Assembly: GCA_047947115.1 (NCBI GenBank)
Contig: CP170459.1
Span: 5,056,001-5,120,000, forward strand
Source of the DNA: Verrucomicrobiota bacterium
GTDB taxonomy: Bacteria; Verrucomicrobiota; Verrucomicrobiia; Limisphaerales; AAA164-E04
Direction of reading: 5' to 3'
Length of the DNA: 64,000 nucleotides
Shown: positions 59 through 47,101 of the stretch, piece after piece
Position numbering within the stretch: position 1 is the stretch's first letter
How the letters are laid out: each line of letters opens with the position of its first letter
Notes under the pieces: model-generated
What the model was told of the DNA's origin: nothing
The model's database searches: none
What the model saw: only the letters and a program-made list of their open reading frames with translations
Made by a program: the position numbers and the translations under genes

Positions 59-889
59 ATGCAAATCAGACACACCGGCAGACGACCTTTCAGAACACGC
101 GCATTCACCTTGGTTGAGTTGTTGATCAGTGTCAGCCTCATGACCGGTATCATGGCGGCGTCGTATGTGTGTTTGCAGGCGGCCCTGACCGGACGTACCA
201 TGGTCAATGACCGGTCCGATGCGATCCAGTCCGCACGCGTGGTGATGGACATGATTGCCGCCGACCTCAGAGCGGCTGATCGCCTCTCTGAACAACACGA
301 GATCCTCGGACTCGACCGCACACTCGAAGGCATTGAAGCCGACAACATCGATTTCGTCACCCGACACTATCGTCCAAAATTCCCTACTGAAGCAGACTAT
401 TGCGAGACCAGCTATTTCGTCGCCAAAAACCCGGAGACCGATCGCTTCGTCCTGTTGCGTCGGCGCGACGCTTCACCGGACGACAAACCGTTGGAGGGAG
501 GGCAACGAGAGGCCTTGATTGATCATTTGCTGGGATTGAAACTGGAGTATTACGATGGCTGGGATTGGTATGATGACTGGGGTGATGCGAAATCACCCGA
601 GAATACATCGGCGGCGGAAGAATCCTCCCTGATCGCCTCCGCCGGCAGAACCGGTTTCCCGGACGCGGTCCGCATCACACTGGCCATTGGCGAACGCACC
701 TCCGACGTTCCCGCACTTGCTCAACCCACCATGACCACCGGGGAAGAGACCGCTCCAACCATACCGGGCGCCTTGATTTTCCAAACCATCGTTCACCTCA
801 ACCATGCCGGAGCAGAGGACGCATCAGGATCCGAAACAAACGCTACCGATGCAAGCAGTGCATCCAACGGCAACACTCAGAACCAATGA
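59..889 (+). CDS. gspJ: Type II secretion minor pseudopilin, GspJ/PulJ-like
   Basis: Class III prepilin signal RTRA/FTLVELLISV with Glu5 and a hydrophobic helix. Late motifs LKLEYYDG and FPDAVRITL are typical of GspJ. Precedes a GspK-like gene. Confidence 0.8.
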   Translation: MQIRHTGRRPFRTRAFTLVELLISVSLMTGIMAASYVCLQAALTGRTMVNDRSDAIQSARVVMDMIAADLRAADRLSEQHEILGLDRTLEGIEADNIDFVTRHYRPKFPTEADYCETSYFVAKNPETDRFVLLRRRDASPDDKPLEGGQREALIDHLLGLKLEYYDGWDWYDDWGDAKSPENTSAAEESSLIASAGRTGFPDAVRITLAIGERTSDVPALAQPTMTTGEETAPTIPGALIFQTIVHLNHAGAEDASGSETNATDASSASNGNTQNQ

Positions 890-890
890 C

Positions 891-2234
891 ATGAAACACC
901 CCCGCGCAAACAACGGATCAGTCCTGGTCGGCATCTTATGGTGCATGGCGCTGCTATCCGTGGTGGTGGTGGGTTCGCTTTATACGTCCCGCATTGACCT
1001 GACGTCCACCAAACTCCATGGCGATCGCATTCAGGCTTACTATCTCGCCCTGGCTGGAGTGGAAACAGCGAAGGCACTGATCTACGAAGACGCCAAGGAC
1101 CGGAGTCAACGCAGCACGCACCACAGTGGAGCGCTTTATGAAGATCCCTCCCAATTTCAGGACATCCCATTTTCCCGGGGCACATTCAGGGTGGGCCATG
1201 CCGGCAAGCAAAACCCGGATGGCATCTGGACCTTTGGAATTCGTGATGAAGAAGGAAGGTTAAACATCAACACGGCCAGCACGGAAGAGCTGGCCAAACT
1301 TCCCGGTTCCAGTGAATCCATCGCAGCTGCCATCGTCGATTTCCGTGACAACGACGATCAGGTGACTCCGGGAGGCGCCGAATCGGATACCTACGCCAGT
1401 CTAACCCCACCCTACCTTCCTAGAAATGGTCCGTTCAAGAGTGTCGATGAACTCCGCATGGTTTATGGAATCAGCCCTTCCATGGTGGTGGGAGAAGACA
1501 GCAATCGCAACATGATCCTCGATCCCGAGGAAAACGACGGTGAAACCTCGGAACCCATGGACAATCAGGACGGCCGCCTGGATCTGGGTTGGAGCGAATG
1601 GCTCACTGCTCACTCCGCCATGGCAAACACCACCGCATCGGGCGACACGCGCATTTCCATTCAGGAGGCCGATGAAACCGAACTGACCGAAATACCCGGA
1701 ATAACCACTGACCTCGCCGAATCCATCGTAAAATTCCGGGAAGACAATGAATTTCAAACCATCGCCAGCCTGCTGGATGTTGTCCAGGCCAGCGATGATG
1801 ACGACGTCAACAATGGACGTGGAGGAGGATCCGCTTCTGGCGAGAAACTGATTTCCACCAGCGAATTCATATCGATGTCCGATTACGTCACGGTGGGCAC
1901 CGACACTTCCCTGCCCGGTCGGATCAACATCAACACCGCACCGGAAGAAATCCTGACGTGCCTGCCGGGCATGACACGCGAATTGGCGCATGCCGTAGTC
2001 AATTACCGTTCGTCCTCGGGCTACTTTGATTCAGTGGGCGCCGTGTTGAATGTGCCGGGCATGACGACGGATATTTTCAAACAACTTTGTCCCCGCATCG
2101 GGGTTCGTTCGGACACGTTCCGTATTCTGAGCGAGGGACGCATCACTTCCACCGGCGCAAAAAAGCAGATCGAAATGATCGTTCGAGTCGAGGACGGCAC
2201 CATTACCACATTGGCATACAGGGAATATCCATGA
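891..2234 (+). CDS. gspK: GspK/PulK-like pseudopilin with three helix-hairpin-helix (ComEA-like) units
   Basis: G/SVLVGILW prepilin start lacking Glu5, QAYYLALAGVETA, DEEGRLNINTA, AAAIVDFRD, RNGPFKSVDELRMVYGI, C-terminal SDTFRILSEG. Start set at ATG 891, right after the gspJ stop. Confidence 0.85.
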   Translation: MKHPRANNGSVLVGILWCMALLSVVVVGSLYTSRIDLTSTKLHGDRIQAYYLALAGVETAKALIYEDAKDRSQRSTHHSGALYEDPSQFQDIPFSRGTFRVGHAGKQNPDGIWTFGIRDEEGRLNINTASTEELAKLPGSSESIAAAIVDFRDNDDQVTPGGAESDTYASLTPPYLPRNGPFKSVDELRMVYGISPSMVVGEDSNRNMILDPEENDGETSEPMDNQDGRLDLGWSEWLTAHSAMANTTASGDTRISIQEADETELTEIPGITTDLAESIVKFREDNEFQTIASLLDVVQASDDDDVNNGRGGGSASGEKLISTSEFISMSDYVTVGTDTSLPGRININTAPEEILTCLPGMTRELAHAVVNYRSSSGYFDSVGAVLNVPGMTTDIFKQLCPRIGVRSDTFRILSEGRITSTGAKKQIEMIVRVEDGTITTLAYREYP

Positions 2235-3697
2235 CGACATCAACACAAACATCAACCCATCGATTGGCCGTTGAAATCCGCGCCGGCTCATGGCGCGGCG
2301 GCACGGCATCCGGCGGGTTTGACATCCCCATTCAACGCAACGCACAAGGCAATATCACGGACGAAAGCAGAGCGACGGTCGTCCAAGCCCTGAATGACTT
2401 GACCGGAAACAATCCCATTCAGTTCACCCATACCACCTGTGCTGTCACGTCAGGCGGAATGTTGCTGCGCACCATGGAGCTGCCGGCCGCCGCAGATGAT
2501 GAGGCGCTGAAAAATCTGGTGGAACTTCAAATCGAAAAAGAATGGCCACTGCCACCGGAAGAACTGGCCTGGGGTTTTCAGCGCATCGTGGAGCCGACCG
2601 GTTCGGACCTCAATCCGGAAACTCCCAAAGTCAAAGTGACGGTGGCGGCGATCAAAAGTTCGGTGTTCCGTCAGTACAAGGAAATCCTGTCAGACTGCCG
2701 TCTCCAAGCAGACTGGATTGTCGGAGCAAGTGTTGGGTCCATGGCAGAGGACATCGCTTCCTCCAAAACAGCCTGGCTCATGGATGTTCAGGCAAAGAAC
2801 ACGGACCTCGTCCATTACGAATGGGGTGTTCCAACGACTGCGCAAACTTTTTCAACCGGATCGAATGAATTAGTCCGGAACACCGAATCATCAGAACTCT
2901 CCAAAGACTTCCTATCCATCATCAAAACGATCCAATGCGAAGGTTCTCCTTTGATGTTGGTGGTCGCTGCAAGTGAAGCTTGCTTGAAAAAATTGCAGCC
3001 CCCCCTTCAAGCCAACTTCCCGGGGGTCCCGATTCAAAGCCAATTAATCGATACACGGCCAGGTGCAAGCCTCGCCACGCAACATCTGATCACCCATACC
3101 TGCCCCCATCCCGGCCGCAACGTGATCACACTGGAATCCCATGAAGTGAAGGCGCCGCCCGCTCCCATCGACAAGGCGCCGTTTATTCGCTGGGGTGTTC
3201 TGCTCGCCGCCTTGATCATGACCATCTTTCTGGCACGTCGAATCGAACCGAGCCTGAAAGCTGGCAAACTCGAAAGCCAACTCACACAGTTCCGCGAGCA
3301 AAAGAAACTGCTACCGGAAATCGACCGGGAACTCAGTTTCCTGGAACATATCCAAAACAAATCCCTGCCTTACATGGATATCATCGGATTGCTGGCAGCG
3401 CATTCAACACCGGGCTTTCAACTGGAATCCATGGATATGGGCAGCGACCGTCGCGTCCAACTGCGCGGTTTGCTCCAGGACGCCCATCCGGAGGACCTGC
3501 GGGCCAAACTTCTCGCCACCGATTGGTTCGATCAAGTGATACTCGATGAACAAACACCTGATCGGGACGGACGCAAACTCACCGTCCGCATCACCCTGTT
3601 GGTCAAGGAACATTTAAAACGCCCCAAAGCCACCGAAACCATGCTCGGCATTGAAACGGAATCAAAAAAGGACGAACCGAAGAAAGGGGGGAAATAA
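2231..3697 (+). CDS. GspL / PilM-PilN-like assembly platform protein
   Basis: ATGA overlap with gspK. N-terminal actin-like cytoplasmic part (LLRTMELP...LQIEKEWPLPPEELAWGF), one TM segment (WGVLLAALIMTIFLA), coiled coil and a PilN-like periplasmic tail. Confidence 0.7.
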   Translation: MTTSTQTSTHRLAVEIRAGSWRGGTASGGFDIPIQRNAQGNITDESRATVVQALNDLTGNNPIQFTHTTCAVTSGGMLLRTMELPAAADDEALKNLVELQIEKEWPLPPEELAWGFQRIVEPTGSDLNPETPKVKVTVAAIKSSVFRQYKEILSDCRLQADWIVGASVGSMAEDIASSKTAWLMDVQAKNTDLVHYEWGVPTTAQTFSTGSNELVRNTESSELSKDFLSIIKTIQCEGSPLMLVVAASEACLKKLQPPLQANFPGVPIQSQLIDTRPGASLATQHLITHTCPHPGRNVITLESHEVKAPPAPIDKAPFIRWGVLLAALIMTIFLARRIEPSLKAGKLESQLTQFREQKKLLPEIDRELSFLEHIQNKSLPYMDIIGLLAAHSTPGFQLESMDMGSDRRVQLRGLLQDAHPEDLRAKLLATDWFDQVILDEQTPDRDGRKLTVRITLLVKEHLKRPKATETMLGIETESKKDEPKKGGK

Positions 3698-3701
3698 CAT
3701 C

Positions 3702-4265
3702 ATGTTGGATTCCATGTCACAAAAAGACAAGCGCACTCTCCTTATCGGAGGCATCTTCATCATCGTTTATCTGGGTTTCTTTTATGGCAACAAGCTGCTG
3801 GGACTGTTCGAGGGCGAACGAAGGGCCTATTTTGATCAATTTGAAGAGGCTCAACAGCTGGGAGATCTTTTCAAATCCTATGAAACCCGCGTCATGAAAA
3901 TAGAAAAACTACGTGAGCAATACAGTTTGAACGTGAGAACCCTCGAAGCCACCAACCTCATCGGCAATGCCGGACGCGCCATCCAGGATCTGGTAAAAAA
4001 CTCGGGTTACAAAATGGGGCAAATACGGGAAGTCGCCAGCCGGGGCGGTCAGGGAATTGCCGCCACACTGCAACTCGAAGGAACAGGCCCCCTCAAATCG
4101 CTCATGCCTTTATTACATCGCTTTCAAACAACCGGCTATCCTCTGATTGTCGATTCCTTCACAGTGCGCGCGGAAAAGCGCAAGCCAGGCGAAGTTCAAT
4201 GGTCCGCCGAGGTGATCCTCCTGGACTATCAAAAGTGGAAAAAACCGGGAGGCGGCAATGCATGA
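3702..4265 (+). CDS. GspM/PilO-like inner membrane platform protein
   Basis: SQKDKRTLLIGG plus TM segment, coiled coil, and a C-terminal ferredoxin-like segment (LQLEGTGPLKSLMPLLHRF...LIVDSFTV). Position after the GspL-like gene. Confidence 0.7.
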   Translation: MLDSMSQKDKRTLLIGGIFIIVYLGFFYGNKLLGLFEGERRAYFDQFEEAQQLGDLFKSYETRVMKIEKLREQYSLNVRTLEATNLIGNAGRAIQDLVKNSGYKMGQIREVASRGGQGIAATLQLEGTGPLKSLMPLLHRFQTTGYPLIVDSFTVRAEKRKPGEVQWSAEVILLDYQKWKKPGGGNA

Positions 4266-4764
4266 CAAATGGCAAAAAGGATTCAAAGGGGCCGCCATTC
4301 TGCTTTGCGTTTTGGCCTTGTGGCCGATCGCACAAATGCTGTTCCGCAAATCGCCCTTGCAGGATATCCAACCCATCCAGTTAAACGCTTCTGAACCAAC
4401 TCCCGCCAAGGAGCCCGATAAAGACAAATCCGGCGGTAGCCTTCCGGGAAGGAGCAACAACCAAATGGACGACCTGCCACCGGACATTGAGAAAAGATCG
4501 GCCAAACTTGAGGAGAGCGGCATTCTGGGAAGAACCCCCAAGCCGCCCCCCATGGCCCTGATCGGTATTGCCGAACCCTATGCCTTTCTGCAAACGCCGA
4601 CGGGGCAAACCGAAAAAATCAAGGAAGGAGAATCCCTGAACGGCGTCAAAGTCCTCCGGGTCGGCTCCAACCGCGTACTGGTGGAGCACGAAGGCCAAAC
4701 CAGTGAATTATCCATTTTTTCGGGCATCGGAAGCGAATCCCTGATGCCTTCAAACAATCAATAA
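4258..4764 (+). CDS. GspC/PilP-like protein
   Basis: N-terminal TM segment, Pro-rich linker, HR-like domain (LIGIAEPYAFL...IKEGESLNGVKVLRVGSNRVLVEHEG). Immediately upstream of the secretin. Confidence 0.7.
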   Translation: MHDKWQKGFKGAAILLCVLALWPIAQMLFRKSPLQDIQPIQLNASEPTPAKEPDKDKSGGSLPGRSNNQMDDLPPDIEKRSAKLEESGILGRTPKPPPMALIGIAEPYAFLQTPTGQTEKIKEGESLNGVKVLRVGSNRVLVEHEGQTSELSIFSGIGSESLMPSNNQ

Positions 4765-4775
4765 GACTTCAGTTT

Positions 4776-7700
4776 ATGAAAACACCCACTCCCAACCAAA
4801 TGAAAGCCGGTCTCGCCGGATGCGCGATTCTGGTGCTTTTGCTGTTCATTTCCCTTCGCCCAGCCAATGAAGGATTAGAAGCTCAAAATGCTCCGGTGAT
4901 TCCACCCAACACGGAACAGGCCAACGCTGTCAATGTCACACCGGACACCACCCCTCCCTCGGAATCAGGCAACGCCAAAGCGGATGAAGCATCAACTCCG
5001 CCCAAGGATAGCGATACGGCCAGCTCCGTATCCGGCGAGGAGACGACACCTTCCTCCCCGGCACCCGCACCCGAACTGAAATCTGATGATGAAACAGCAC
5101 CATCGAATACAGAGATGCCTTCCGAGACAACCGATGAGGACAAACAGGAAGATAAGAAAAAGGACGAAGGCATCCTCTTGAGTTTCAAACAGGCCAACAT
5201 CGACATGATCAGTCAATGGCTCGCAGAAACCACCGGGAAAAGCATCGTCAAACACCCACAGGTCAACTGCAAACTGACCATCATCAGCACGCTCAAAATG
5301 AGCAAACGCTCGGCCATCGAACTAGTGTACCAGGCCCTTGCTTTGGAAGGGTTCAACGCCATTGAATCCACCAAATCCATCTTCATCCTGCCGGAAGGAC
5401 AACAACCGAAAATCAGTCCCACCCTGATTGATTCAGACAATGATGAAACAACCGAAAGCCGCCAGCCTGTCGTCCGCGTCTTTCAGTTGAACAACATCAA
5501 ATCCAGTCAGCTCAAGGAGAAGCTCAAAAACATCCTTTCCAAAACCGGCACCATCGAGACCGACGACGAAGCCAACAAGGTGATCGCAACGGATTTCGCT
5601 CAAAACATCCAGTTATTGAGTGAATTGATACAGGAATTGGATGTGCTCTCTCCATCCGATTCCGTGATTGAAATCTTTGAATTGAAGTATGCCGAAGCTG
5701 AGGAGTTATCAGGACTGTTGGGTGGCATCCTCAATGGTGTCACAGCGCCTCCCAGCCGTTCCTCATCTTCATCTTCCTCCTACTACCGACGAAGTTCATC
5801 CTCAAGATCCAGCGAAAACAATGGATCACAAGACACACGTTTGTGGGCTGATACAACGACGAATCGCTTGATTGTCTCCTGCCCAAAAGCGCGGATGAGT
5901 GAAATCAAACGTCTTGTCTTGATCCTCGACTCTGAAAAACCCACCGATGTGGCGGTGCGTGTGATCCCGTTGATACATGTGGACAGCCAGGAACTCATGC
6001 GTGAAATCGCACCCCTGTATGAAAGACTCAGTGGCACCTCCCTGAAGGAAACCATTGAAGTCACGGCAAACAGCCGATCCAATTCGCTGATCGTTCTTTC
6101 CAGCGAATCGAACTTTGAATCCATGCAGGAACTGATCCGACATCTGGACAACGAAGACGCACAGGAAACAGTGATCAAAGCCTTCCAACTGAATAACGCC
6201 GACGCGACGGATGTCTCCGAACAGCTTCGTGAACTCTACCAGGGCGGCACTGGAAGTTCTTCACGTTATACCTACGTTTACAATTATGGTTCCAGCCGAG
6301 GCGGCAGCTCGGAGAAAAAACCCAGTTTTGTCGCCGACATTCGGCGCAACACAGTCATCGTCCAAGCCCCGCCCGCATCACTTGACGGCATCGAGGAAAT
6401 GATCAAGTCCCTGGACGAACCCATCACGGACGACAGCCTGGTGCCACGCATTTTTCAATTAAAATTCGTCAGTGCCGTCGACATCGAAGAGGTGTTGAAC
6501 GAACTGTTCATCCAGGAAGATAACTCACGGGATTACTTCAACGTTTATTACTATGGATACAATTCTAACAGCTCCAACTCCAACAACACCGGGCGCCTGA
6601 TGGGCAAACTCCAGATCACCAGCGAGCCTTACTCGAATTCGATTATTGTCACATCCAATTCAGTGGAAAACATGACCGTGGTGGAGAACGTGCTGAAACA
6701 ACTCGACGTACCATCAAGTGCGGGTGAAACAACACTGCGAGTTCCGTTGAATTTCGCCAACTCCATCAAGCTGGCAAACAACGTCAATATCCTGTTCGCA
6801 AAAGGCGGCGCTCCCCCCATTCGCCCCAGTCAGAACCAACCCAATCAACCACAGAACAACAACCCAAACAATCCGAACAATCCGAATGGCGGTCAAAACT
6901 CATTCGAACTGGAGCAGGATAAAGAAGAAGATGCCTACTTCCCATGGTTGGGAGGACAACAAGACAACGCACGTGGTTTCGGAACCCAAACTGTCAGCCG
7001 CCCGGTGAGCGATCTGATTGGAAGGGTTCGCGTTGTTCCAGATGCACGAACGAATTCGCTATTGATCACGTCCAATGTTCATTTTTTACCACAAGTGCTC
7101 AAATTGGTGAACGAACTGGACACCCCGACCGCACAAGTGCTCATCGAAGCCAAAATTGTCGAGGTCTCCAGCGATTTCCGGGACAAACTAGGTATGCGCT
7201 GGTCACCGGATGGCACGCAGGTGTTTGATTCGGATGATATGGACGGTTCCCTCCAAACAGCTTCCCTCGCCAATTTCACCAAGGTCTTTGCCGGGGGCGG
7301 AACAGCGGGAAGCTTGAAAAGCGGGGTCCTGGACTCCACCATTAATCTGGACGTATTAGTGCAGTTCCTGAGAAAGAACAGCGATGCCAATGTCATGGCC
7401 GAACCCAAGATCAATGTGTCGGACAACGAACTTGGCAAACTGTTCGTGGGTGCCCGGGTTCCCTTCATCGAGGGTTCACTCAACACCCGCGAAGGCGGCC
7501 GCAACGACACTTTCAATTACCGCGATGTAGGTATCATTCTGGAAGTGACGCCACATATCAACAACTCTGAGGAAGTCGCGTTGAAAATACGTGTGGAATC
7601 CTCCAATATACGAAGCGGGGAAAGCCTCTTCGGGGGTGCCATTCTGGACACTCGCAGTTTCAAGACCGACATGGTGGTCAAGAGCGGCGAAACACTGGTC

Positions 7701-7976
7701 CTTGGGGGAATCATTCAACAGGAGACCACGGAAGTCGTCCGCAAAGTCCCGCTTTTGGGAGATATTCCCATCCTTGGATATGCTTTCAAAAAACGGGACA
7801 AAGTGGAACGGGATGTGGAACTGATGGTTTTCCTCCGTCCCGTCGTCACCAGAAGTCCGGAGGATGTCCGCAAACTCATCAAGGATGTTGAGAGCAAAAC
7901 ACCCAGAATCGAGGCTTGGCATAAGCAGCTAGAAGAGGCCAGGAAGGAAGAAGAGGAGGACGGGCACGAGGAGTAA
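4776..7976 (+). CDS. gspD: Secretin GspD with an expanded set of N-domains
   Basis: N0 domain (LSFKQANIDMISQWLAETTGKSI), repeated KH-like N-domains, and the secretin core QVLIEAKIVEV...DVGIILEVTPHIN...GETLVLGGII...KVPLLGDIPILGYAFK...ELMVFLRPVV. Confidence 0.95.
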   Translation: MKTPTPNQMKAGLAGCAILVLLLFISLRPANEGLEAQNAPVIPPNTEQANAVNVTPDTTPPSESGNAKADEASTPPKDSDTASSVSGEETTPSSPAPAPELKSDDETAPSNTEMPSETTDEDKQEDKKKDEGILLSFKQANIDMISQWLAETTGKSIVKHPQVNCKLTIISTLKMSKRSAIELVYQALALEGFNAIESTKSIFILPEGQQPKISPTLIDSDNDETTESRQPVVRVFQLNNIKSSQLKEKLKNILSKTGTIETDDEANKVIATDFAQNIQLLSELIQELDVLSPSDSVIEIFELKYAEAEELSGLLGGILNGVTAPPSRSSSSSSSYYRRSSSSRSSENNGSQDTRLWADTTTNRLIVSCPKARMSEIKRLVLILDSEKPTDVAVRVIPLIHVDSQELMREIAPLYERLSGTSLKETIEVTANSRSNSLIVLSSESNFESMQELIRHLDNEDAQETVIKAFQLNNADATDVSEQLRELYQGGTGSSSRYTYVYNYGSSRGGSSEKKPSFVADIRRNTVIVQAPPASLDGIEEMIKSLDEPITDDSLVPRIFQLKFVSAVDIEEVLNELFIQEDNSRDYFNVYYYGYNSNSSNSNNTGRLMGKLQITSEPYSNSIIVTSNSVENMTVVENVLKQLDVPSSAGETTLRVPLNFANSIKLANNVNILFAKGGAPPIRPSQNQPNQPQNNNPNNPNNPNGGQNSFELEQDKEEDAYFPWLGGQQDNARGFGTQTVSRPVSDLIGRVRVVPDARTNSLLITSNVHFLPQVLKLVNELDTPTAQVLIEAKIVEVSSDFRDKLGMRWSPDGTQVFDSDDMDGSLQTASLANFTKVFAGGGTAGSLKSGVLDSTINLDVLVQFLRKNSDANVMAEPKINVSDNELGKLFVGARVPFIEGSLNTREGGRNDTFNYRDVGIILEVTPHINNSEEVALKIRVESSNIRSGESLFGGAILDTRSFKTDMVVKSGETLVLGGIIQQETTEVVRKVPLLGDIPILGYAFKKRDKVERDVELMVFLRPVVTRSPEDVRKLIKDVESKTPRIEAWHKQLEEARKEEEEDGHEE

Positions 7977-8264: not shown

Positions 8265-10247
8265 ATGAAAAGACAACACACATTTCCTGTTGCCATGACA
8301 ACGGTTGCGCTCAGTGCGCTCATGGCAATCCCTGCCACCCAGTCACAGAACCTGAGAGATGGGCTGGAAGTTTACTGGAGTTTCGACGAAGGTTCCGGCA
8401 ACATGGCCAACGACACTTCCGGCAATGATCGCGAAGCCGTTCCCGAAGAAAATCTTTTTCCAGGAGCCATGATCGATTGGTCAGGGGGCAAATTCGGCGG
8501 TTCCGTCAAGTTTGATAGCTCCTATATGTTGCACTCTCCTTTCGAGTATTATGGTATCGGCGATGCCAATCCCCGAACCATTTCCATGTGGGTTAAAACA
8601 GATTGGCAGGCCGCCAATTCAAGCTCTGTGGGGGCCATCATGGGATGGGGTGTTCATGCTGGACGTCAACGCTGGCACTTCAAATTCAATGGCGGCACCG
8701 ATGCGGATGGAAATGTCCAACAATTCCTCCGTACGGAGAACCAGGGTGGCAATAATTTCGGCAACACGATCCCCGTAAACGACGGCGAATGGCATCACTT
8801 TATTTCCGTATTCGATCCCGACGTGGACGCCAACGAAGACGGTATCCTTGCTGCGGTTGGCGATGTGGATCACTACGTTGATGGGGTGCTTGAAAATAAA
8901 AACGGGGGTGTCGGCAACCCGGTCGAAACATTGATTGACCCCGAACAAGGCGCGGTACCCGTCACCATTGGTGGTGGTTACTTTCCGGATATCAACGGAG
9001 CTCGCCTGATGGAAGGTCGTGTGGACGAGGTACGCATCTATAGTCGCGCTTTGAGTGTCGAAGAGATCCAGGCTCTGGCCGCCGGTCGGGACGTGGATGG
9101 ACCACCTTCTGTAGAAATCACCAACAACATTGAAGGGGCCGAACTGGTCTCAGAAGACACTCCCATCGAATTCACCATCACCCCACAAGGCGACGCGACG
9201 GTGGCCAAATCCGACATAACGCTCGAACTCAACGGAAGGAGCATCATTGGCAGCACCACCATCGATGGTTCTGTGACAGGCTGGACCGGTAGTTTTACCG
9301 GCCTGGAAAAGAACAAAGTTTACAACGGCAAAATCGGCGCAACCGACAGTAAAGGCCGCAGCTATTCGTTTGAATTCTCTTTCGACACCATCTCGTTGGA
9401 CAATTACTCCATTGAGGCAGAGGACTTCAACTTCGACGGTGGCGAATTCTTTGCCAATCCAGTTCCCTGCGACACCCCGGGCGGTTCCACAGCCAATTGC
9501 TATTTCGATCGCGTCAGTGAAATCGGCGTGGACGCAAACGACGATTTTGCCGACGATCGCCCCACTGATGAAGATGCCGATTTTCAGGCCTTTCTGGACA
9601 ATGGATTCCGCTTCGGCCCAGGTTCCTTCAAGGATGAACTGGTTGACACCTGGGTATCCGGTGACGCACTGCGGGGCAAGTTCACCGACGCAGGCGACAA
9701 CGTCAGGGATTACGATGTGGAACGCGTCAACACGGATGAATGGTACAACTACACCCGCAACATCCCTCAAGGCACTTATCAGGTCCTGCTGAGAGCACGC
9801 GGTCGTGGCGATCAAACCATCGGCTTGGGATCGGTCAACAACCCCACCAGCGCCAACCAAACAGCAACCGCCATCGGGCAGTTCAACGTCACCGGCACCG
9901 GCGGTGCTTACAAATTCTTCCCATTGAAAGATGAAAGCGGACGTGACCTGATCATGGAATACGGCGGCGAACAGACCCTTCGCCTGACGGCCATCAACGC
10001 CGACGGCAATGTGGACTTGAACTACATCATGTTTGTTCCGGCAACCATTTCCGAGGAACCAGTGGAAGTGGAACTAATGATCGCCGCGAACGGCACTCAG
10101 GTTACCTTGAGTTGGGATGGTGACGGCGGTGTCCTGCAGCAGAGCGCCACTGTGAATGGGCCCTGGTCCAATGTGGACACCACAGGAAGTTCCCACACCG
10201 TCACAGCCGATCAAAGCGAAGCCTATTTCAGGGTGGTAGCGCCTTGA
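8265..10247 (+). CDS. Secreted LamG-like jelly-roll / CBM-like protein with a C-terminal beta-rich module
   Basis: Sec signal peptide. LamG motifs GLEVYWSFDEGSG, RTISMWVK, NDGEWHHF, GRVDEVRIYSRALS. CBM6/35-like IEAEDF...EWYNYT...VDLNYIMF. Terminal ...QQSATVNGPWSNV...AYFRVVAP. Confidence 0.85.
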   Translation: MKRQHTFPVAMTTVALSALMAIPATQSQNLRDGLEVYWSFDEGSGNMANDTSGNDREAVPEENLFPGAMIDWSGGKFGGSVKFDSSYMLHSPFEYYGIGDANPRTISMWVKTDWQAANSSSVGAIMGWGVHAGRQRWHFKFNGGTDADGNVQQFLRTENQGGNNFGNTIPVNDGEWHHFISVFDPDVDANEDGILAAVGDVDHYVDGVLENKNGGVGNPVETLIDPEQGAVPVTIGGGYFPDINGARLMEGRVDEVRIYSRALSVEEIQALAAGRDVDGPPSVEITNNIEGAELVSEDTPIEFTITPQGDATVAKSDITLELNGRSIIGSTTIDGSVTGWTGSFTGLEKNKVYNGKIGATDSKGRSYSFEFSFDTISLDNYSIEAEDFNFDGGEFFANPVPCDTPGGSTANCYFDRVSEIGVDANDDFADDRPTDEDADFQAFLDNGFRFGPGSFKDELVDTWVSGDALRGKFTDAGDNVRDYDVERVNTDEWYNYTRNIPQGTYQVLLRARGRGDQTIGLGSVNNPTSANQTATAIGQFNVTGTGGAYKFFPLKDESGRDLIMEYGGEQTLRLTAINADGNVDLNYIMFVPATISEEPVEVELMIAANGTQVTLSWDGDGGVLQQSATVNGPWSNVDTTGSSHTVTADQSEAYFRVVAP

Positions 10248-16550: not shown

Positions 16551-18290
16551 TCATGAATCTCCACGAATGCGCCAGGTGACCCTGCGGAGTTCTTCCAAAC
16601 AGATCCAACCTTCATGAATCTTTAAGAAGGCATTCTCACGCAAGGAACGCCAGCCAAATCTGCGGGCTTCTTCTTTAAGCCGCGTCACGGTCATCCCCTG
16701 GGCGATGGCTTCAGCCAGCTCGTCGTTCATCAAAAAGAATTCATAGATAGCGACACGCCCCCGATAACCTAATTGGGCACACTCATCGCATCCCTCACCT
16801 TTCCAGGCACGCACCTCAGCTGGATCAATGGCAAGGATCTCTGCCATTTCCATACGCAATTCATCATTGATGGCCTCATCCTGAACTCTGCAGTTCGGGC
16901 AAATCCTCCGAGCCAGCCGCTGCGCAACCGAAGCCACCAAGGAAGAACCGATCAAGTGCGGATCCATGTTCATCCCCAACAATCGAGACAACACACCAAT
17001 GCTGTCGTTGGCATGCAATGTCGACAAAACCAAGTGTCCTGTCTGGGCCGCGCGTACGGCAATTTCAGCGGTGTCCTGGTCTCGAATTTCACCGACGAGA
17101 ACAACATCTGGATCATGCCGTAACACCGACCGCAAGCCACTGGCAAAAGTCAGGCCGATATCATCACGCGTTTGGATCTGGGAAATGCCTTCCATCTGGT
17201 ATTCCACTGGATCTTCAATAGTAATGATTTTTCGTCCATCGTCATTGGCCTGGGCCAGGGCTGCGTAAAGGCTGGTGGTTTTACCTGAACCGGTTGGTCC
17301 AGTGATGAGGATGAGGCCCTGCGGCAATTGCACCATTTTGGAAAACAGCTTTTCCTGCGCAGGGTCCATTCCAAGCTGTCCCAGATCCATGAAAAGACTC
17401 TCACGCCCCAGAATGCGCAGACAGATGGTCTCACCGTGTTTGGTCGGGATGACAGACACACGCAAATCGAATTTTTCTCCCTGCGTACTCATGGTGATTC
17501 TCCCGTCATGTGGCAGTCTCTTTTCGGCGATATTAAGATCCGCCATCACTTTGAGACGGGAAACAATCGCGCCATAAAGCTGTTTCAACTGCTCCGGAAC
17601 GGGGACTTTATGAAGGATTCCGTCAATACGATACCGCAATCGAATGGCATCTCGATAGGGTTCGATGTGGATGTCGGTGGCACGCAGCTTCAAGGCTTCA
17701 TCCAGGATCTGGTCGACCAGCTTGGAAATAGCCCCGTCCTTTGGTTTGAGATCCCCCGTCGCTCCTACGTCATAAATGATCTCCTGATCAAGATCGGGGA
17801 TCTGACTTTCGGATCGCAAATGTTCGACGGTATCCGCACCCAAACCAAAGCAACGTTTGATTTCGGACTGCAAGCGACTCGGTATGGCAAGCACCACCTG
17901 GATGCGTTTTCCAAGAATCAATCGCAGATTCCCGAGTTCAATGGAACTGGGAATATCACTGAAAGCCAGGGTGATCTGGTCATCAGCTACTCGAACAGGG
18001 AGTAATTGGTAATGAAACACCAGCTTGACAGGGACGGATTTCAGCAGTTTGTCGCCGGGCTGGTAGTTCTCCAAATCGAGGTATTCAAGGTGCTCCGATT
18101 CAGCAAGCGCACGAATGGTATCCTCTTCTCCGGCCAACCCCAATTCCAGCACAGCCCTGGCGCAGCTTACCTTTCTGCGCAACTGAAAACTGCGTATTTT
18201 TTTGAGCCCTTCTTCGGTCAAGAGGCCGCGTGCCAGGAGCATGTCCGCCGCATCGGCATGACGATTGTCTATGGAATGGTTGTTCGTCAT
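16551..18290 (-). CDS. GspE/PilB-family secretion/pilus assembly ATPase
   Basis: N-terminal T2SSE_N-like domain, ATDIHIEP, Walker A GPTGSGKTT, TIEDPVEY, Walker B DPDVVLVGEIRD, His-box TGHLVLSTLH, tetra-Cys CPNC...CDEC. Confidence 0.95.
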   Translation of the reverse strand: MTNNHSIDNRHADAADMLLARGLLTEEGLKKIRSFQLRRKVSCARAVLELGLAGEEDTIRALAESEHLEYLDLENYQPGDKLLKSVPVKLVFHYQLLPVRVADDQITLAFSDIPSSIELGNLRLILGKRIQVVLAIPSRLQSEIKRCFGLGADTVEHLRSESQIPDLDQEIIYDVGATGDLKPKDGAISKLVDQILDEALKLRATDIHIEPYRDAIRLRYRIDGILHKVPVPEQLKQLYGAIVSRLKVMADLNIAEKRLPHDGRITMSTQGEKFDLRVSVIPTKHGETICLRILGRESLFMDLGQLGMDPAQEKLFSKMVQLPQGLILITGPTGSGKTTSLYAALAQANDDGRKIITIEDPVEYQMEGISQIQTRDDIGLTFASGLRSVLRHDPDVVLVGEIRDQDTAEIAVRAAQTGHLVLSTLHANDSIGVLSRLLGMNMDPHLIGSSLVASVAQRLARRICPNCRVQDEAINDELRMEMAEILAIDPAEVRAWKGEGCDECAQLGYRGRVAIYEFFLMNDELAEAIAQGMTVTRLKEEARRFGWRSLRENAFLKIHEGWICLEELRRVTWRIRGDS

Positions 18291-33697: not shown

Positions 33698-33872
33698 TCA
33701 GGAAATTATGTCCAGTTTGAAACAGTTGATGTTGCTGCCCCGAACACTTGCCTTGAGCTTGTCTGGCAAGTGAAGTCAAGTTTGGAAGAGGGGCTTAGCC
33801 ATGTCCTCATGAATCCTGTGCTACCCTAAAAACCGAGTTGACCAGAAGAGATTCATGCTTATTTTTTTTCAC

Positions 33873-34948
33873 ATGAAAGGTTTATTGATTCATGCTGCAC
33901 TCCTGGCGGTGGTTCTGTCCACCCATGCGGAAGTCGTTTCATGGAAATTATCGGGGGAATTGAATTACGTCCATCCGGCACTGTCCGAGCAATTCACGGT
34001 GGGCGACACTTACACCATGACCTTGAATGTGGAGAATGGGATTCCCGCCGTCGAAATTGACCGGCCTTTCTTCTACAGTGTGGGAAACTTTGATGATTCG
34101 CTCATCGACGGTTCCCTGGCTTTTGCCAATGGCTACACCATGGAACTTGGCGGACACAGCCCTGGGAGTTTCAATATCATCAATGCCGGAGCAAACAGCG
34201 CTTCCGGATATGACCATTGAACCTCAGTGTTCAAGCATTTGACGACTCGCTGACCGGGGAACCTGTGGCAGGATATTCGGCCGAGATATTGACATTGAAC
34301 TTCACCGATGATGTGCCTCCTCTGAACTTGTTATCCGGATCGGAAGCGGCATTTCCGGCATATGACCTTCCTTTTCCTTCAGCAGAAACATTCCACCTGG
34401 AAGAGACAACCAACGAGCGGTTTCATCTGAGACTTCAATTTTCAGGAGGGCAGCCTGACGGCACCCACTTTGTAAGAGGCTCGATCACCGATTTTTTATT
34501 CACGGATTCCGGAAACACCCATGAACCTTCAGGAGGAGGCAATTTTGAAGAAGCCATCCACAATGCGAATCTTCCTGAAGAAGCCAAAGCTTTCAACGCA
34601 GATGCTAATGGTGACGGGATTCCAAACGGCATTGCCTACGCTCTGGGCATACCAGTCCTGGGGGCATCGGACGCCTTGCGCTACCGCCTCCCCACCTTTG
34701 CCAAAAACCAGTGGCGCATCATTCTTCCCCTTGAACTACCTGCCGACATTGCTTACGAAATACGTGTATCAACCACCCTGGGAGGCGACTGGACTGCGAT
34801 TGCTTCACGCCCAATCAATGGCACCTGGGAAGGAGCGGTCGATATTGAATCAACAGACAAAGAACAAACGGTCAGCGCCGACGTCTCGGTCAACCTCAAC
34901 CATCATCAAGCAGTGTTCTTCAGCCTGCGCGTGACTTTGAATCCTTAA
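33873..34948 (+). pseudogene. Frameshifted secreted protein with a Ca-binding-type repeat and C-terminal beta-rich module
   Basis: The signal-peptide ORF (MKGLLIHAALLAVVLSTHA) stops at 34220. The second frame continues from 34217 to DANGDGIPNGIAYALG...FFSLRVTLNP. One extra T at cat/tga would join them. Confidence 0.6.
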
Positions 34949-41898: not shown

Positions 41899-41986
41899 CA
41901 GATACGCTTTCCGTTAAGCCTTGTAATGTCTGGAGTTATATGAATATACTCTGGATGTTCAACAGGAGGAACCCCCATTACCAGTC

Positions 41987-42382
41987 ATGAAACAAATTCA
42001 TGATTGGACTGCTCACAACAGCAGACTTCACCATCACAAACAGGTCTTTCGTCGACTTGCAAAAACGCTACCAGCTCTGGTGATGTTACTATGCCTACCG
42101 ATTCTAGTAACCGCACAATCGCCTGCTGAGCTCACTCTCTCCATACATCTCAGGGAAAATGTAGCCGGACCTTACACCATCGCCTGGAACAGTGAGATCG
42201 GCGAAGAATATGATGTTTTGGCCACGGATTCATTGAAGGAAGATTGGCAGCGAATCAATTCATCCCCCATCACGGCGATCGCTGCAATCACCGAGTTCAC
42301 GGATACTGAGCCTTTGGAACGCCGGTTTTATCGCGTCGTTCGGTTGACATCGACACCTCCCACCGGTTCTTCAGGTGAATAG
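41987..42382 (+). CDS. Signal peptide plus beta-rich (FYRV-type) module; in-frame N-terminal part of the next ORF
   Basis: Hydrophobic signal ending VTA/Q, then WNSEIGEEYDVLATDSLKEDWQRI...FTD...RRFYRVVRL. Ends in a TAG that is in frame with 42395..47101. Confidence 0.65.
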   Translation: MKQIHDWTAHNSRLHHHKQVFRRLAKTLPALVMLLCLPILVTAQSPAELTLSIHLRENVAGPYTIAWNSEIGEEYDVLATDSLKEDWQRINSSPITAIAAITEFTDTEPLERRFYRVVRLTSTPPTGSSGE

Positions 42383-42394
42383 ATTTACGGTACC

Positions 42395-45300
42395 ATGCAA
42401 CCGGACAGGGCTCAATTGAAGGTGAACCAACAACTGCAGTTCACCGCCTTTTTTCTCTCAGCAGGTTCAGCGGTGTGGAGCCTTGATTCGACGGATCCGG
42501 ATCTTCCGGGCAGCATCAGTGCCCAGGGACTTTATACAGCACCGGCCAGCCTGCCCGACCCAGGACTGATCCTTGTCCGTGCGCACAATGCAGAAGCTCC
42601 CCATGAACAAGTTTCCGCTTTGGTGGCAGTGCTTCCTGAAGTGGTATTTCAAATCACCCGTGAGCAAGCGATCGATATCCTCATTGAAAACGTCATTGCA
42701 CCACTGCCTGACAAGGAGAAAATGATAGCACTCGGTCTGCAGGAAACGCTTGAGGAAGAGGATCGACTGACCGCGTTTGACCCATCCCCCAACGGTACGG
42801 CTGCTCGCCCAATTGATTCACCCTGCTGGTTTTTCATGTTGGATCATGATCCGGGTGCAAGTTGGGCTCATCCGGTCGACTATGTTTTGATCAACTGCCA
42901 GACAGGAGCCATCGAGCAAACATTACGCCGCTTGTGGTATCCTGAATTGAACGGTCTCGCCTTCTGGAATTCCCTGGAATCAAAAGAAAGCAAGAATGAT
43001 CTGGTCTTTGCCGGACGCGAAATATACTCCAATCTGGAGGAACCGGAAATCGTGGCACCCACCCCTGAAGCGAGTGCTGAAGCTTTCGGTCCCCTGTCAT
43101 CTCACGCCACCCCGCTTGCAGATGAATTCCTCCCTCTCAACCGTGTTTTCCCACGTCCGGTCTCAGCATGTGAATGTGAAACACCGGGTCAATTTTATGC
43201 AGTTGTCGGAGTGACAAGCCCGGAAGAAAGCCGGTTGTTACGCTCAGGAAGGCGATGGAAGGAAATTTTCGAATCCAACCGTTATCACACGAAGTACATT
43301 TCAAATCCGGCCGGCAAAAGCATTCTTTCAGCTCTGGATGAATTGCGCCACGTTGTCAGACCATGCGATGTACTGGTTCTTTACCTGATGGGACATGGTG
43401 TGGCCGGCAGTCTGAGCAAATCACCCAGTGGTTCGATTGCTGAAGTCATGGCCCTGATCCCGACCAACGCCAAATACTTCATCATGGAAACATGTGACGC
43501 AGGTCATGTGTTCGGCATCATGAATCAACAACGGCACGTCCCCGCCATGACCATACTCACCGCCTCGAACAAGGTGGACACCAGTTCAAACATTCAATTT
43601 TCCGGAACCGCCCCTTTGGCCACCATCCATCCATTGGGATTATCAGCATTCAGCAGTGCCCTCATTTCCTGCATGTCCAGGCACGACGACTTGTCACTGA
43701 TCCACCAATGCCTGACCAGTGTCACTGAAATAGGCCCCCTGGGCTTGCGCCTCAAATTTGCCGGCCCCCAACTTGGGACTGTGGGAGATCCTGACACAGA
43801 CAACGACGGAGTGACTGACAAGTATGAGCTGGCCTGCGGCATGGATCCCGAAAATCCGGACACCGACGGCGACGGAGTCTGCGATGGCATTGAATTTGGC
43901 GAGCTGGCAACCTTGGAAGAGAAAAGTCAATGGGGTTTGCGTGAGTTTTTCCTGGCTGAAGGTCTGGGTCGCCCCAAATTTGCCACACACACACAATTGC
44001 CGGCAGCGGTCGCATTCAACTCCTATGAACAACAACTGACCATCAGCAAAGGAATCCCGTTCAATGATCGTCCTGTCGGCGAGGAAAACCCTTTTGGCAA
44101 ATCCGCAGGCAATGGATATCGACTGGTATCCGGAGTCTTGCCCGCAGGAGTGACATTCAACACCGATACGGGCTGGATAAGTGGTAGGGCGACGGAATTT
44201 GGCACGTTCAACATCACCGTCCGCTATACCGATGCCATCGGAGCATTCGTGGAGAGCACTTACAATCTCCGAGTGCAGGCCCGCGGCGAAAGAGATCCGG
44301 AAATCGTAGTCTCAACCGCATTGGACGGCAATGTTCGGGACGATGATCTTTCACTCAGAGAAGCTCTCATGCTGGCAAGTGGTCAAATGACACCGGACCA
44401 GTTGCGCCCCGATCCAGACCCCAACAATGGTATCGGGGAAGGTGAAACACGCTGGGTTCGATTTGGCATTCCGTCTGCCGACTCTTCTGACCGCATCATA
44501 TTCCAGGCTCCCACCGATTCCTACACCATCACTCAAGGATCACTTGACGTGGCAGGGCAAAACGACATCATTGAATTCTCCCCCAGGGACAGTTTCTCCA
44601 TCAACCAGGGACCCTTGTTCAAAATCACGGGGAATGGAAATCAGTTCACAAATGCTGGCAAACTTCTGACATCCGCTGCGGGGCCGGTTGTGATGATTGA
44701 AGGCAACGACAATGTAATCGGAGGAGTACGAAACCACACCCAAACCGCATCATTCACCATCACGGGGAATTCCGCAAGCGACGGCGTACACATCTCAGGC
44801 AATGGCAACCGGATCGCCGGCACCATCGTGAGGGAAGCTCAAACAGGCATCCGCATCAGCAACGGATCGGGCAACCAAATCCGTCGGTGCCGCCTTATTT
44901 TGAATCAGGACGGACTTCGCCTGGATCAGGGCGCTCATCACAATGATATCAGGGATTGCATCAGTGGCTTTTTATTTGAAGAAGTCGCCCCTCCAAAGCC
45001 CCATCCCAACACACGAAACGGGATCGTGATTGCCGACGGAGCCCACGACAACACCATTATTGACAGCGGGGTGGGAGCCAATGGCGGAGCCGGATTGATG
45101 GTAACAGATAAGGGCACCGATCGAAATCAAATCATCAACAACCGTATTGGCACAGACCAGGGATTCGGAAGATCCGCAGGCCCGGTCGGCCCAAACCAGC
45201 AACATGGCTGCGTCATTCAATCTCAAGCCTCAAACAATCACGTGACGGGTGGGAGCATCTCCGAGAACACGGGTCATGGTATCCTCATCACCGGCAACGA

Positions 45301-47101
45301 AACATCGAAAAATGAAATCGGCGAAGGAGATACTCGGGGTGTGGAGATCAATAAACCGGATGAAACGGGTGATGCCGTTCGAATTGAAAACGGCGCAAGT
45401 GAAAACAGTATTTCCGTAAACATCGACCTGGCGGGTGCAAATGGCATCAGCATATTGGGAACAGGAACCCGTCACAACCGCGTCGGAATGCGCCGTTTCA
45501 ACCAACTCTCCATTCCAACTCAGATCAACAATGTCAAGGGAATCGGCGTCTTGATTGCGGAGGGCGCAAGCGACAACATCGTGGAAGGAGCACGCATTAG
45601 AACCTCTGAAACGGGCCTCGTCATCCGTGGACGCAATACCGATCGCAATCAAGTACAAGGCGTCTCCCTGACCAGAAATCGAGGCGATGGAATCCAGCTC
45701 ATAGATGGGTGCCAGCATAACCGAATAGAGGCGGAAGGTTTCATCGAAGAAAACGGGGCCAATGGCATTCTGATTGCGGGGCAACAGACAAGTTTCAATT
45801 TAATAGAGGACACCACTTTCAATTCAATCACTCCGAACACACTGCAAGCAATCAGGCTGGACGATCAAACAAACAACAACCGCGTCGAATCCTGCGACAT
45901 CAGACGACATGAAGCCGGAGGCATTCTGATCACGGGCGGTGCGCACTCCAATCAAACCGTCAGCACTTCCATTCGCGGAGGCTTATTTCAGGAAGACGTC
46001 GCCAAGAGCACAACCGGAATCACGATAAACGGAGGCGCACTGAAAAATCTCGTGCTGAAATGCTCGATCTCGAGCAATGGACAACATGGTGTCTTGATTG
46101 AAGGACAGGAAACCCGGCGGAATTTTCTCTATGACAACAACATTCAGAGCAACCTGCAAACCGGGATCCGAATTGAAAACGCCGTAGACAACCGGATTGG
46201 ATCTGCCGCCCGGGGAGGCAACGACATCCAGCGCAGTCCAGGAATCGGCATCCACATCACCGGAGATTCAGCGTCTTTGAACAAAGTGCGCGCGAACATC
46301 ATCGGAGCTACTTTCAGCACCTTTTTCGTGAATGAACACCACGGCATTGTGATCGACCATGGAGCCCATGACAACCGCATCGGAGGTGTCCGGCCACGCT
46401 TCCCAGACCCAGCCACGCCACAAATACTGTTGCCTCCCACAGAAGATCAACTTGCCCACGGAAACCTGATAACAGGGAACGGAGGACACGGGATCGTCAT
46501 TGATGGCGCAAATAACAATCTGGTGCTTGGAAACCTGATCGGCTTTTCAAACCCCAACCGCCCCGTCAAGGGCAATGGTGGCCATGGCATCGCCATTCTG
46601 AACGGAGCCCAAGGAAATCGCATTGGAAATGGTGTGGCCCCAAATTTGCTGAATCCGGGTTATTCCAATCAAATCGTCGGGAACACCAAAGCCGGCATCT
46701 GGCTCAGCGGCGCCGGGACAAAGGCCAACACCATTCGTCGCAATGAAATCTACGACAACGGCGAAGGTCACATCGTTCTGGAACAGGACGCGAACAACAA
46801 CCTCGAATCCCCTGGCGTCTTTGTCGAAGTGGTCGAGCAGCGCATCCAGGGAAGCACATCAAAAAGAGGATACATTGAATTGTTTTCAGATGCTCGGGGA
46901 TTCAATGGTATATTCCATCTCACCGCACTGGTTGGTGGAGGCGATTTCACCATTAACCAGTCAAATCCAGGTCAATCTTTCAACGCCGTCATCATCGAAT
47001 CTGTACGCCCGATTCGCTTTGGCGATCAATATATCTCTTACACAGAATACCAATCAGGAAACACATCCAGTTACAGGCACCTGGACCTGACTTCTCCGTG
47101 A
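42395..47101 (+). CDS. Large multidomain extracellular protein: Ig-like, caspase-fold (clan CD) peptidase-like, Ca-binding repeats, He_PIG, CSLREA and parallel beta-helix
   Basis: GSISAQGLYTAP (Ig), LVLYLMGHG...FIMETCDAG, DTDNDGVTD/DTDGDGVCD, SGVLPAGVTFNTDTGWISG (He_PIG), VSTALD...LSLREALMLA, and many NxI/GIxI beta-helix repeats. Confidence 0.8.
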   Translation: MQPDRAQLKVNQQLQFTAFFLSAGSAVWSLDSTDPDLPGSISAQGLYTAPASLPDPGLILVRAHNAEAPHEQVSALVAVLPEVVFQITREQAIDILIENVIAPLPDKEKMIALGLQETLEEEDRLTAFDPSPNGTAARPIDSPCWFFMLDHDPGASWAHPVDYVLINCQTGAIEQTLRRLWYPELNGLAFWNSLESKESKNDLVFAGREIYSNLEEPEIVAPTPEASAEAFGPLSSHATPLADEFLPLNRVFPRPVSACECETPGQFYAVVGVTSPEESRLLRSGRRWKEIFESNRYHTKYISNPAGKSILSALDELRHVVRPCDVLVLYLMGHGVAGSLSKSPSGSIAEVMALIPTNAKYFIMETCDAGHVFGIMNQQRHVPAMTILTASNKVDTSSNIQFSGTAPLATIHPLGLSAFSSALISCMSRHDDLSLIHQCLTSVTEIGPLGLRLKFAGPQLGTVGDPDTDNDGVTDKYELACGMDPENPDTDGDGVCDGIEFGELATLEEKSQWGLREFFLAEGLGRPKFATHTQLPAAVAFNSYEQQLTISKGIPFNDRPVGEENPFGKSAGNGYRLVSGVLPAGVTFNTDTGWISGRATEFGTFNITVRYTDAIGAFVESTYNLRVQARGERDPEIVVSTALDGNVRDDDLSLREALMLASGQMTPDQLRPDPDPNNGIGEGETRWVRFGIPSADSSDRIIFQAPTDSYTITQGSLDVAGQNDIIEFSPRDSFSINQGPLFKITGNGNQFTNAGKLLTSAAGPVVMIEGNDNVIGGVRNHTQTASFTITGNSASDGVHISGNGNRIAGTIVREAQTGIRISNGSGNQIRRCRLILNQDGLRLDQGAHHNDIRDCISGFLFEEVAPPKPHPNTRNGIVIADGAHDNTIIDSGVGANGGAGLMVTDKGTDRNQIINNRIGTDQGFGRSAGPVGPNQQHGCVIQSQASNNHVTGGSISENTGHGILITGNETSKNEIGEGDTRGVEINKPDETGDAVRIENGASENSISVNIDLAGANGISILGTGTRHNRVGMRRFNQLSIPTQINNVKGIGVLIAEGASDNIVEGARIRTSETGLVIRGRNTDRNQVQGVSLTRNRGDGIQLIDGCQHNRIEAEGFIEENGANGILIAGQQTSFNLIEDTTFNSITPNTLQAIRLDDQTNNNRVESCDIRRHEAGGILITGGAHSNQTVSTSIRGGLFQEDVAKSTTGITINGGALKNLVLKCSISSNGQHGVLIEGQETRRNFLYDNNIQSNLQTGIRIENAVDNRIGSAARGGNDIQRSPGIGIHITGDSASLNKVRANIIGATFSTFFVNEHHGIVIDHGAHDNRIGGVRPRFPDPATPQILLPPTEDQLAHGNLITGNGGHGIVIDGANNNLVLGNLIGFSNPNRPVKGNGGHGIAILNGAQGNRIGNGVAPNLLNPGYSNQIVGNTKAGIWLSGAGTKANTIRRNEIYDNGEGHIVLEQDANNNLESPGVFVEVVEQRIQGSTSKRGYIELFSDARGFNGIFHLTALVGGGDFTINQSNPGQSFNAVIIESVRPIRFGDQYISYTEYQSGNTSSYRHLDLTSP

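Follow-up and report, generated by a model that had tools for sequence, protein, structure and literature searches.

A many-to-one terminal domain on signal-peptide proteins of Verrucomicrobiota, possibly recognized by the core type II secretion system

How a type II secretion system (T2SS) recognizes folded cargo proteins that share no signal is a long-standing open question, as the available text of PMC7949064 sets out. The question arises at a locus of a Verrucomicrobiota bacterium, a 64,000-nucleotide stretch of contig CP170459.1 (positions 5,056,001 to 5,120,000 of the forward strand; this whole stretch is "the window" below). Here a first-pass annotation recognized one β-rich module on three otherwise unrelated proteins, one of them encoded directly behind a secretin operon, and proposed a dedicated export system. 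The module is found to be a many-to-one terminal domain on unrelated signal-peptide proteins, and a sorting or anchoring role in some form is highly probable on comparative grounds. The neighboring secretin operon is not the partner of the module, which removes a false lead; the core T2SS, encoded elsewhere in the chromosome, is nominated in its place, a tentative reading to which we give somewhat less than an even chance. New in this work are the system-by-system profiling of secretins, with the rejection of the neighboring operons and the nomination of the core T2SS, an exceptional genus (g6), and the correction of gene models.

The source genome of the window (G000; one contig, 6.08 Mb) was searched as 16,217 six-frame open reading frames (ORFs) of at least 100 residues, with reversed ORFs as decoys, using a profile seeded with the module of the first window protein and iterated over the ORF set. 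The iterated hidden Markov model (HMM) places the module in 133 ORFs (141 domains, E < 0.01), and none of the reversed decoys scores below 0.1. With the long subtype added, about 145 ORFs bear the module, so the three window genes and their locus are not special carriers. Modules span 60–90 residues, the window copies representing short (∼62 residues), medium (77 residues), and long (∼90 residues) subtypes. Median pairwise identity is only 23%; neither phmmer run pair by pair nor an alignment of all three window segments together linked them, and profiles were required. By profile, the three segments are homologous, as first proposed. Copy 1 is the family seed, copy 2 was matched at E 2.4e-6 before it entered any seed, and copy 3, which is borderline with HMMs from its own genome (E 0.069–0.29, and 0.019), is joined through its subtype. 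The main-subtype alignment (A1) holds 41 domains, 39 of them chosen for diversity out of 112 candidates, plus copies 1 and 2. The long-subtype alignment (A2) holds copy 3 and 19 relatives from five other genomes, and leaves out one non-terminal match, one near-duplicate, and two domains strongly matched by the main HMM. The two alignments match by hhalign with a probability of 93.6% and an E value of 2e-7. Relatives of copy 3 in five other genomes are C-terminal at 22 of 23 loci and form a longer subtype with a DxDGDG loop ahead of it. Column conservation over the 141 domains (W 80%, F/Y 92%, Y/F 92%, R 75%) agrees with the consensus originally drawn from the three window segments.

The family is large and has no entry in the domain databases. 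No Pfam or NCBIfam model describes the module (41 members scanned), despite matches of its profile to 34,966 clusters at 50% identity; repeat proteins that score by summation make up some of this total. Matches in the ESM Atlas are confined to Verrucomicrobiota clusters without names, and no account of the domain was found in the literature, in a search that left subscription journals mostly outside its scope and did not cover supplements. Two genomes labeled Planctomycetota and two of Bacteroidota gave no match, a bare sample of the range outside the phylum. One metagenome-assembled genome labeled Candidatus Methylomirabilota (G264; label unchecked) has 38 module matches together with relatives of the first window protein, and is possibly a mislabeled Verrucomicrobiota genome.

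The position of the module is strongly biased. It lies within 15 residues of the stop codon in 117 of the 133 hosts (116 once the second window protein is removed), whose median length is 838 residues, and just after the signal peptide in about ten (nine plus the second window protein, by eye). Three hosts have tails of 22–30 residues after the module, and four copies are internal. The module thus occupies one end of the mature protein in about 126 of 133 hosts; among 142 representatives with a confident match, the last copy ends at most 20 residues from the end in 121. Export signals and transmembrane (TM) stretches were called with our own heuristic, with internal ATG codons as controls. Of the 112 module ORFs that have an early ATG, 97 show a signal-peptide-like start, compared with 877 of the 1,975 remaining soluble ORFs; the internal controls give 0 of 68 and 34 of 1,521 (2%). 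By the same heuristic, none of the 145 module ORFs has a TM stretch in its last 40 residues. An HMM search of the kind the first-pass annotation had in mind therefore does find mostly terminal matches on ORFs with signal-peptide-like starts. Among the 39 hosts scanned the cargo is unrelated, comprising peptidases (C25, S8, C11), lipases, a β-lactamase, CBM9, PA14, LamG, Ig and CotH domains, and multiheme cytochromes, one of which is MtrC/MtrF-like; Shewanella MtrC is itself a T2SS cargo. Of the 99 homologues in one cargo family, 89 have the module at their end and about five more resemble it by eye; in a single one a PEP-CTERM tail (PF07589) stands where the module would be, one instance in one family. 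The proposal of a portable sorting or anchoring domain is thus well supported by circumstantial evidence (terminal position, many-to-one distribution, unrelated signal-peptide cargo, and this one replacement).

Some hosts depart from the simple arrangement. A 3,023-residue protein (G000:C1:476355-485426, minus strand) ends in eight tandem copies. In two proteins (G000:C1:1618108-1620186 and 2216234-2217178), and at loci L106–L108, some 125 residues of an additional domain come after the module; this domain is Cache in L106 and, as its motif suggests, CHRD-like in G000. Another internal copy precedes what is presumably a spondin-like domain.

The AlphaFold2 model of copy 2 is all-β, with a predicted local distance difference test score (pLDDT) of 89.3 and a predicted template-modeling score of 0.75; the model of copy 3 is weaker (pLDDT 78.0). 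The closest structures to copy 2 (VIA-align) are Fn3-like, with middling Z scores of 6.5–7.8 and root-mean-square deviations (RMSD) of 2.1–2.9, including the bacterial Fn3 domain 3mpc (Z 7.4, RMSD 2.9, 71 aligned), and those to copy 3 are Ig-like (Z up to 6.1). Foldseek returned no PDB match at E ≤ 0.001. The copy 2 model comprises five strands of at least three residues and some short ones, the last being the strand that carries the FYR motif. Alignments stop about 15–20 residues, or about one strand, before the end of the Fn3 domains (3mpc, 3–77 of 96; 7jgu, 8–74 of 90), and on this account the last Fn3 strand (G) appears to be missing. The module is therefore modeled as an Fn3-like β-sandwich that would lack strand G. 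With this strand missing both termini would lie at one pole, and the module could consequently hang from either terminus of its host. In two homologues of the first window protein (P0094 and P0097) the first two strands seem, by eye, to follow the FYR strand, an apparent circular permutation that fits such a one-pole geometry.

Comparison with known systems separates the logic of the module from its identity. The C-terminal domain (CTD) of type IX secretion system (T9SS) cargo in Bacteroidota (TIGR04183/PF18962; type B, TIGR04131) is likewise a small folded β-sandwich, placed C-terminally on many unrelated signal-peptide proteins in a many-to-one manner, and it serves similar cargo classes (C25 peptidase, CotH, LVIVD). 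The models of copies 2 and 3 are β-sandwiches too; their top structural rows are Fn3 and Ig folds, and no T9SS CTD is among the matches listed. None of the 41 members matches TIGR04183, TIGR04131, or PF18962 at E up to 1. The module, moreover, is also N-terminal and tandem, and belongs to another phylum. The T9SS translocon SprA/Sov (TIGR04189) was found in two of two Bacteroidota controls but not in three module-bearing genomes (G000, G087, and G137), nor in any of five genomes searched with no control alongside. The module shares the logic of T9SS CTDs but is probably not one of them. Dockerin and SLH modules offer another likeness, being anchoring modules of 60–70 residues found at either terminus of diverse enzymes and sometimes repeated; their folds are different, the module has no Pfam match, and no cohesin-like scaffold was identified, although no systematic search was made. 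With Fn3 itself (PF00041) the module shares an Fn3-like topology and a similar W/Y-x-L/Y-R-V strand pattern, but it gives no PF00041 match and its model does not show the full seven strands A–G. The PEP-CTERM/exosortase, GlyGly-CTERM/rhombosortase, and MYXO-CTERM systems also use portable, many-to-one C-terminal suffixes. These signals consist of a motif, a TM helix and a basic tail and are cut by an intramembrane protease, whereas the module is soluble and all-β. G000 has an exosortase, yet only about three credible PEP-CTERM tails. Members of one protein family may differ in which such tail they bear, one suffix taking the place of another, as the consulted portion of PMC3237569 describes. 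The statement that cargo of the classical T2SS lacks a portable tag was too strong, since surface proteins that depend on the T2SS can carry GlyGly-CTERM, a C-terminal domain that is portable, according to the available parts of PMC6219818 and PMC13393428.

Which secretion machinery accompanies the module was assessed in two samples. Of 60 further genomes from the order, 59 contain the module, mostly at 19 to more than 96 copies, and the core T2SS is near universal (GspK in 57, GspD in 58, one or the other in all 60). In G000 this core system is split, with gspF-H-I-J-K at 2.906 Mb and gspE-L-M-D at 3.062 Mb. Its gspM and gspD often have no gspC between them: no ORF stands there in G000, G241, G207, or G089, and one does in G081 (gspC elsewhere was not searched for). 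In a phylum sample of 200 genomes, which include related and hence non-independent genomes, core GspD was scored with a profile of its N0–N1 domains (A3) and the module with A1. Core GspD is strongly matched in 108 genomes (113 minus five weak matches). Core GspD is present in 60 of the 61 genomes with at least four module matches, and the exception (G092) has GspK at 7e-23; conversely, 91 of the 92 genomes without core GspD have fewer than four module matches. The module is nested within the distribution of the core T2SS, and the relation is not one-to-one. One low-copy match (G115) resembles a cross-match to an F5/8 domain, and for this reason the one to three matches seen in genomes that lack the T2SS may be false. 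A genome without the core secretin (G070) carries an identical duplicated block in which a module gene stands beside transposase-like ORFs (G070:C2:29348 and 66686; L217 and L218), possibly a mobile import of cargo.

Our preferred, if tentative, reading takes the module as a portable handle with which the core T2SS recruits exported cargo, possibly also retaining it at the surface. Cargo would be exported by the Sec pathway and then fold in the periplasm, with the module hanging from either terminus and both its ends at one pole. The recognized surface would be formed by conserved Trp, Glu/Gln, Phe, and Arg residues together with an unpaired edge strand, a prediction drawn from strand alternation and not from coordinates, and the reader would be a component of the core T2SS. 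A precedent is the T2SS signal in a loop of the PelI/Pel3 Fn3 domain, which is read by GspC and GspD. In the available text of PMC7949064 the Pel3 signal is composite and specific to one protein, whereas the module is portable over about 145 proteins. It is tempting to speculate that a folded, transplantable targeting domain in the style of the T9SS has here been joined to a T2SS, the truncated Fn3 domain receiving its missing strand from a component of the phylum-wide core T2SS, and each genome thereby bringing enzymes, adhesins, and cytochromes, tens to hundreds in number, to the cell surface; this more specific version is doubtful, though a serious possibility. If it sufficed for recruitment, a portable domain of about 70 residues would make the question of cargo recognition directly testable and provide an engineering handle.

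Several observations weigh against the core T2SS as reader. Twenty-six genomes with core GspD match neither module profile, and two genomes that have lost most or all copies (G207 with none, G234 with two) keep the core T2SS; this T2SS is therefore not dedicated to the module. Since it is common (108 of 200) and related genomes are not independent, the co-occurrence may instead reflect a free-living lifestyle. Tandem arrays (the eight copies in one G000 protein, and many among the best-scoring cluster matches) and the four internal copies are unexpected for a signal present once per protein, and only about half of the largest exported proteins bear the module (15 of 30 at 1,500 residues or more, in a crude and unspecific scan that also flagged 46% of controls). 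In the structure search the Fn3 domain of Pel3 (Z 6.5) ties with many other Fn3 rows. Finally, in genus g6 six of 16 genomes have one to seven long-subtype matches, C-terminal and with signal-peptide-like starts at the ten loci read, while GspK and core GspD are each found in 0 of the 16; each of the three g6 genomes checked has no more than two secretins, and those examined resemble Amuc_1098. A co-fold of the module (A1) with the N0–N1 domains of the core secretin (A3) scored 0.01 against a mark of 0.32, with controls not folded, and is evidence neither way. A long-subtype (A2) search of G207, G234, G238, G173, and G014 gave no match, in a run without a positive control. T2SS type B and the second secretin of the window were considered as causes of the module loss in G207 and G234, and rejected.

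The strongest alternative is a surface anchor that acts independently of export, the module binding an envelope polymer or scaffold protein as SLH or dockerin modules do, in which case the correlation with the T2SS would follow from the need of the cargo for some export route. Placement at either terminus and in tandem arrays is reminiscent of avidity modules, copies occur in genus g6 without a T2SS, and the one recorded replacement is by a surface-anchoring PEP-CTERM tail. There is also a weak sequence likeness to F5/8-type carbohydrate-binding domains (found for seven of the 41 members at an E of 0.0065 or worse, and at 0.0025 for the best PDB sequence), but it covers the domain in part and the structure search favors Fn3. 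Neither a scaffold nor any recurring neighbor gene is seen beside module genes in six loci of five low-copy genomes, and abundant copies are nearly confined to genomes with the core T2SS. We regard anchoring alone as unlikely. Even so, a module that served as an anchor only would allow one HMM to predict which proteins Verrucomicrobiota display at the surface, encoded in one order by anything from tens of genes to more than 100 in each genome. The phylum plays an important part in the turnover of polysaccharides.

The module might instead be an ordinary, lineage-expanded Fn3-like domain for binding, capping, or spacing, which has come to stand last by terminal accretion and has no role in sorting. 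The fold with its middling Z scores (no higher than 7.8), the tandem and internal copies, and the low median identity are all in keeping with this, which is nevertheless improbable: the module is terminal in nearly all mature hosts, is usually present in a single copy (141 domains in 133 ORFs), is attached to unrelated cargo and exchanged once for a PEP-CTERM tail, and its terminal aromatic–aromatic–Arg pattern is strongly conserved.

Less probable again is a general tag of the secretin pathway that any available type IV filament secretin would read, even one of the Amuc_1098 type, a pilus secretin according to the part of PMC4960237 consulted. Genus g6, probably Akkermansia as judged in part from Amuc_1101 scores, would fit, since it combines long-type copies with, where checked, only Amuc-type secretins. 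In G000, too, an Amuc_1101/1100/1098-like pilus operon is directly followed by four exported-protein genes of which three carry the module, one of them an S8 protease (G000:C1:5785517-5802517; L041). Against this, 10 of the 16 g6 genomes have no module match, and the Amuc_1101 family is spread over 174 of the 200 phylum genomes, many without the module; no Amuc-type pilus gene was found in the module-rich group f22 (0 of 5) or in G071, which between them have 6–29 copies. An Amuc-type system alone thus does not explain the module family. A cluster of exosortase, EpsI, and sugar-transferase genes lies just upstream of the L041 pilus operon.

There remains the neighbor from which the inquiry began. 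The window opens with gspJ-K-L-M-C-D (59..7976, plus strand), of which GspD exceeds the Pfam/NCBIfam cut-off and J, K, L, M, and C fall below it. Translations just upstream of the window contain gspE-F-G-H-I, which makes this a complete T2SS with the core genes gspC–M present and one of three GspK-bearing types in G000, a genome with eight secretin genes. A second secretin cluster (16551..23598, minus strand) comprises a secretin (21499-23598), three genes without a Pfam or NCBIfam match, and a PilB/GspE-type ATPase. This second secretin is highly conserved, at 48–63% identity in 27 other genomes of the order and 87% in G230. The window T2SS type occurs in 10 of the 60 order genomes (plus one fragment) and the second secretin in 28, with a median module count of 63.5 both with and without the latter. 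At least 19 copies are present in 47 of the 50 genomes without the window T2SS and in 24 of the 27 that lack both systems, so the co-occurrence that a dedicated partner would entail is not seen. Copies are more numerous in the 10 genomes with the window T2SS (median 86.5, compared with 54.5; p 0.01, with no correction for kinship or for genome size, and with counts of 96 or more treated alike). The first module protein does lie directly behind gspD, but the arrangement is not conserved: none of nine orthologous operons with a visible downstream gene is directly followed by a module gene, although three have one no more than about 6 kb away, in line with chance, and none of four close orthologues of the protein (55–91% identity) has a T2SS gene in its flanks, one of which ends at a contig end. 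With eight secretins and 133 module genes, the chance that some secretin has a module gene within 1–2 kb is 0.6–0.7, and the adjacency is accordingly expected by chance. Given the mismatch in distribution and the lack of conserved adjacency, a tag dedicated to either window system is largely refuted and hardly credible.

Close reading of the module genes, all on the plus strand, changed two of the three gene models. Protein 1 (8265..10247, 660 residues) has a signal-peptide-like start, a LamG domain, a middle region without assignment, and at its extreme C-terminus module copy 1 (10056..10244), which is in the seed and scores E 5e-7 with the long-type seed. All 19 full-length close homologues among P0053–P0072 end in the module, and one partial homologue does not; relatives with names belong to Verrucomicrobiota, Pedosphaera sp., and Limisphaerales, which makes Limisphaerales/Pedosphaerales the probable order. 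Protein 2 had been taken for a 131-residue protein, but is the N-terminus of a gene of 1,704 codons (41987..47101) that is split in the assembly by a TAG at 42380-42382. The ORFs 41987-42382 and 42395-47101 share one frame, and position 42381 reads T in place of A (TAG to TTG) in four of four public sequencing runs, one of which may be the source of this DNA itself; it follows that protein 2 is one gene. The 77-residue module copy 2 (42116..42346) directly follows its signal-peptide-like start and precedes weak caspase-like, TSP3, Ig, and β-helix regions. A DNA search for this gene in G230, a genome of the same genus, did not find it. Protein 3 (34217..34948) ends in a DxDGDG-type loop region and module copy 3 (34673..34945) at its extreme C-terminus, and is the 3′ part of a frameshifted gene. 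Proteins 1 and 2 have signal-peptide-like starts, as first ascribed to all three, whereas protein 3 has none of its own, the signal-peptide-like start lying on the 5′ part (33855..34220) in another frame. One extra base after 34215, seen in run X10 only (one of four runs), fuses the two into a gene of 364 codons, and the frameshift is common to the other three runs; protein 3 is therefore interpreted as a frameshifted allele. Near-identical window DNA is present in marsh, estuary, and seawater runs. The 20 of 145 module ORFs without an early ATG, which resemble fragments, together with several split genes, suggest indel or stop errors, or pseudogenes, in the G000 assembly.

Further loci deserve brief mention. 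Upstream of the window T2SS lies a gene (L040:756-4460, minus strand) for a 1,234-residue exported protein with PKD, CARDB, and HYR-4C domains and a Gly/Asn/Pro-rich tail, without the module. Within the window, at 29258-30325, the C-terminal part of an acetyl-CoA hydrolase and a GNAT part occur as separate ORFs ahead of a histone-deacetylase-family gene, and may be a broken or mis-assembled fusion. The third T2SS of G000 (G000:C1:2365138-2379365; L043) has its secretin divided between two separate genes (514 and 405 residues) and a transposase-like ORF between gspJ and gspK, and its GspK type occurs in about 40 of the 60 order genomes. Downstream of gspK and gspL in G238 (contig C5; L152:4008-15893, minus strand) is a secretin of 3,962 residues, in which about 34 Secretin_N repeats form a giant periplasmic extension.

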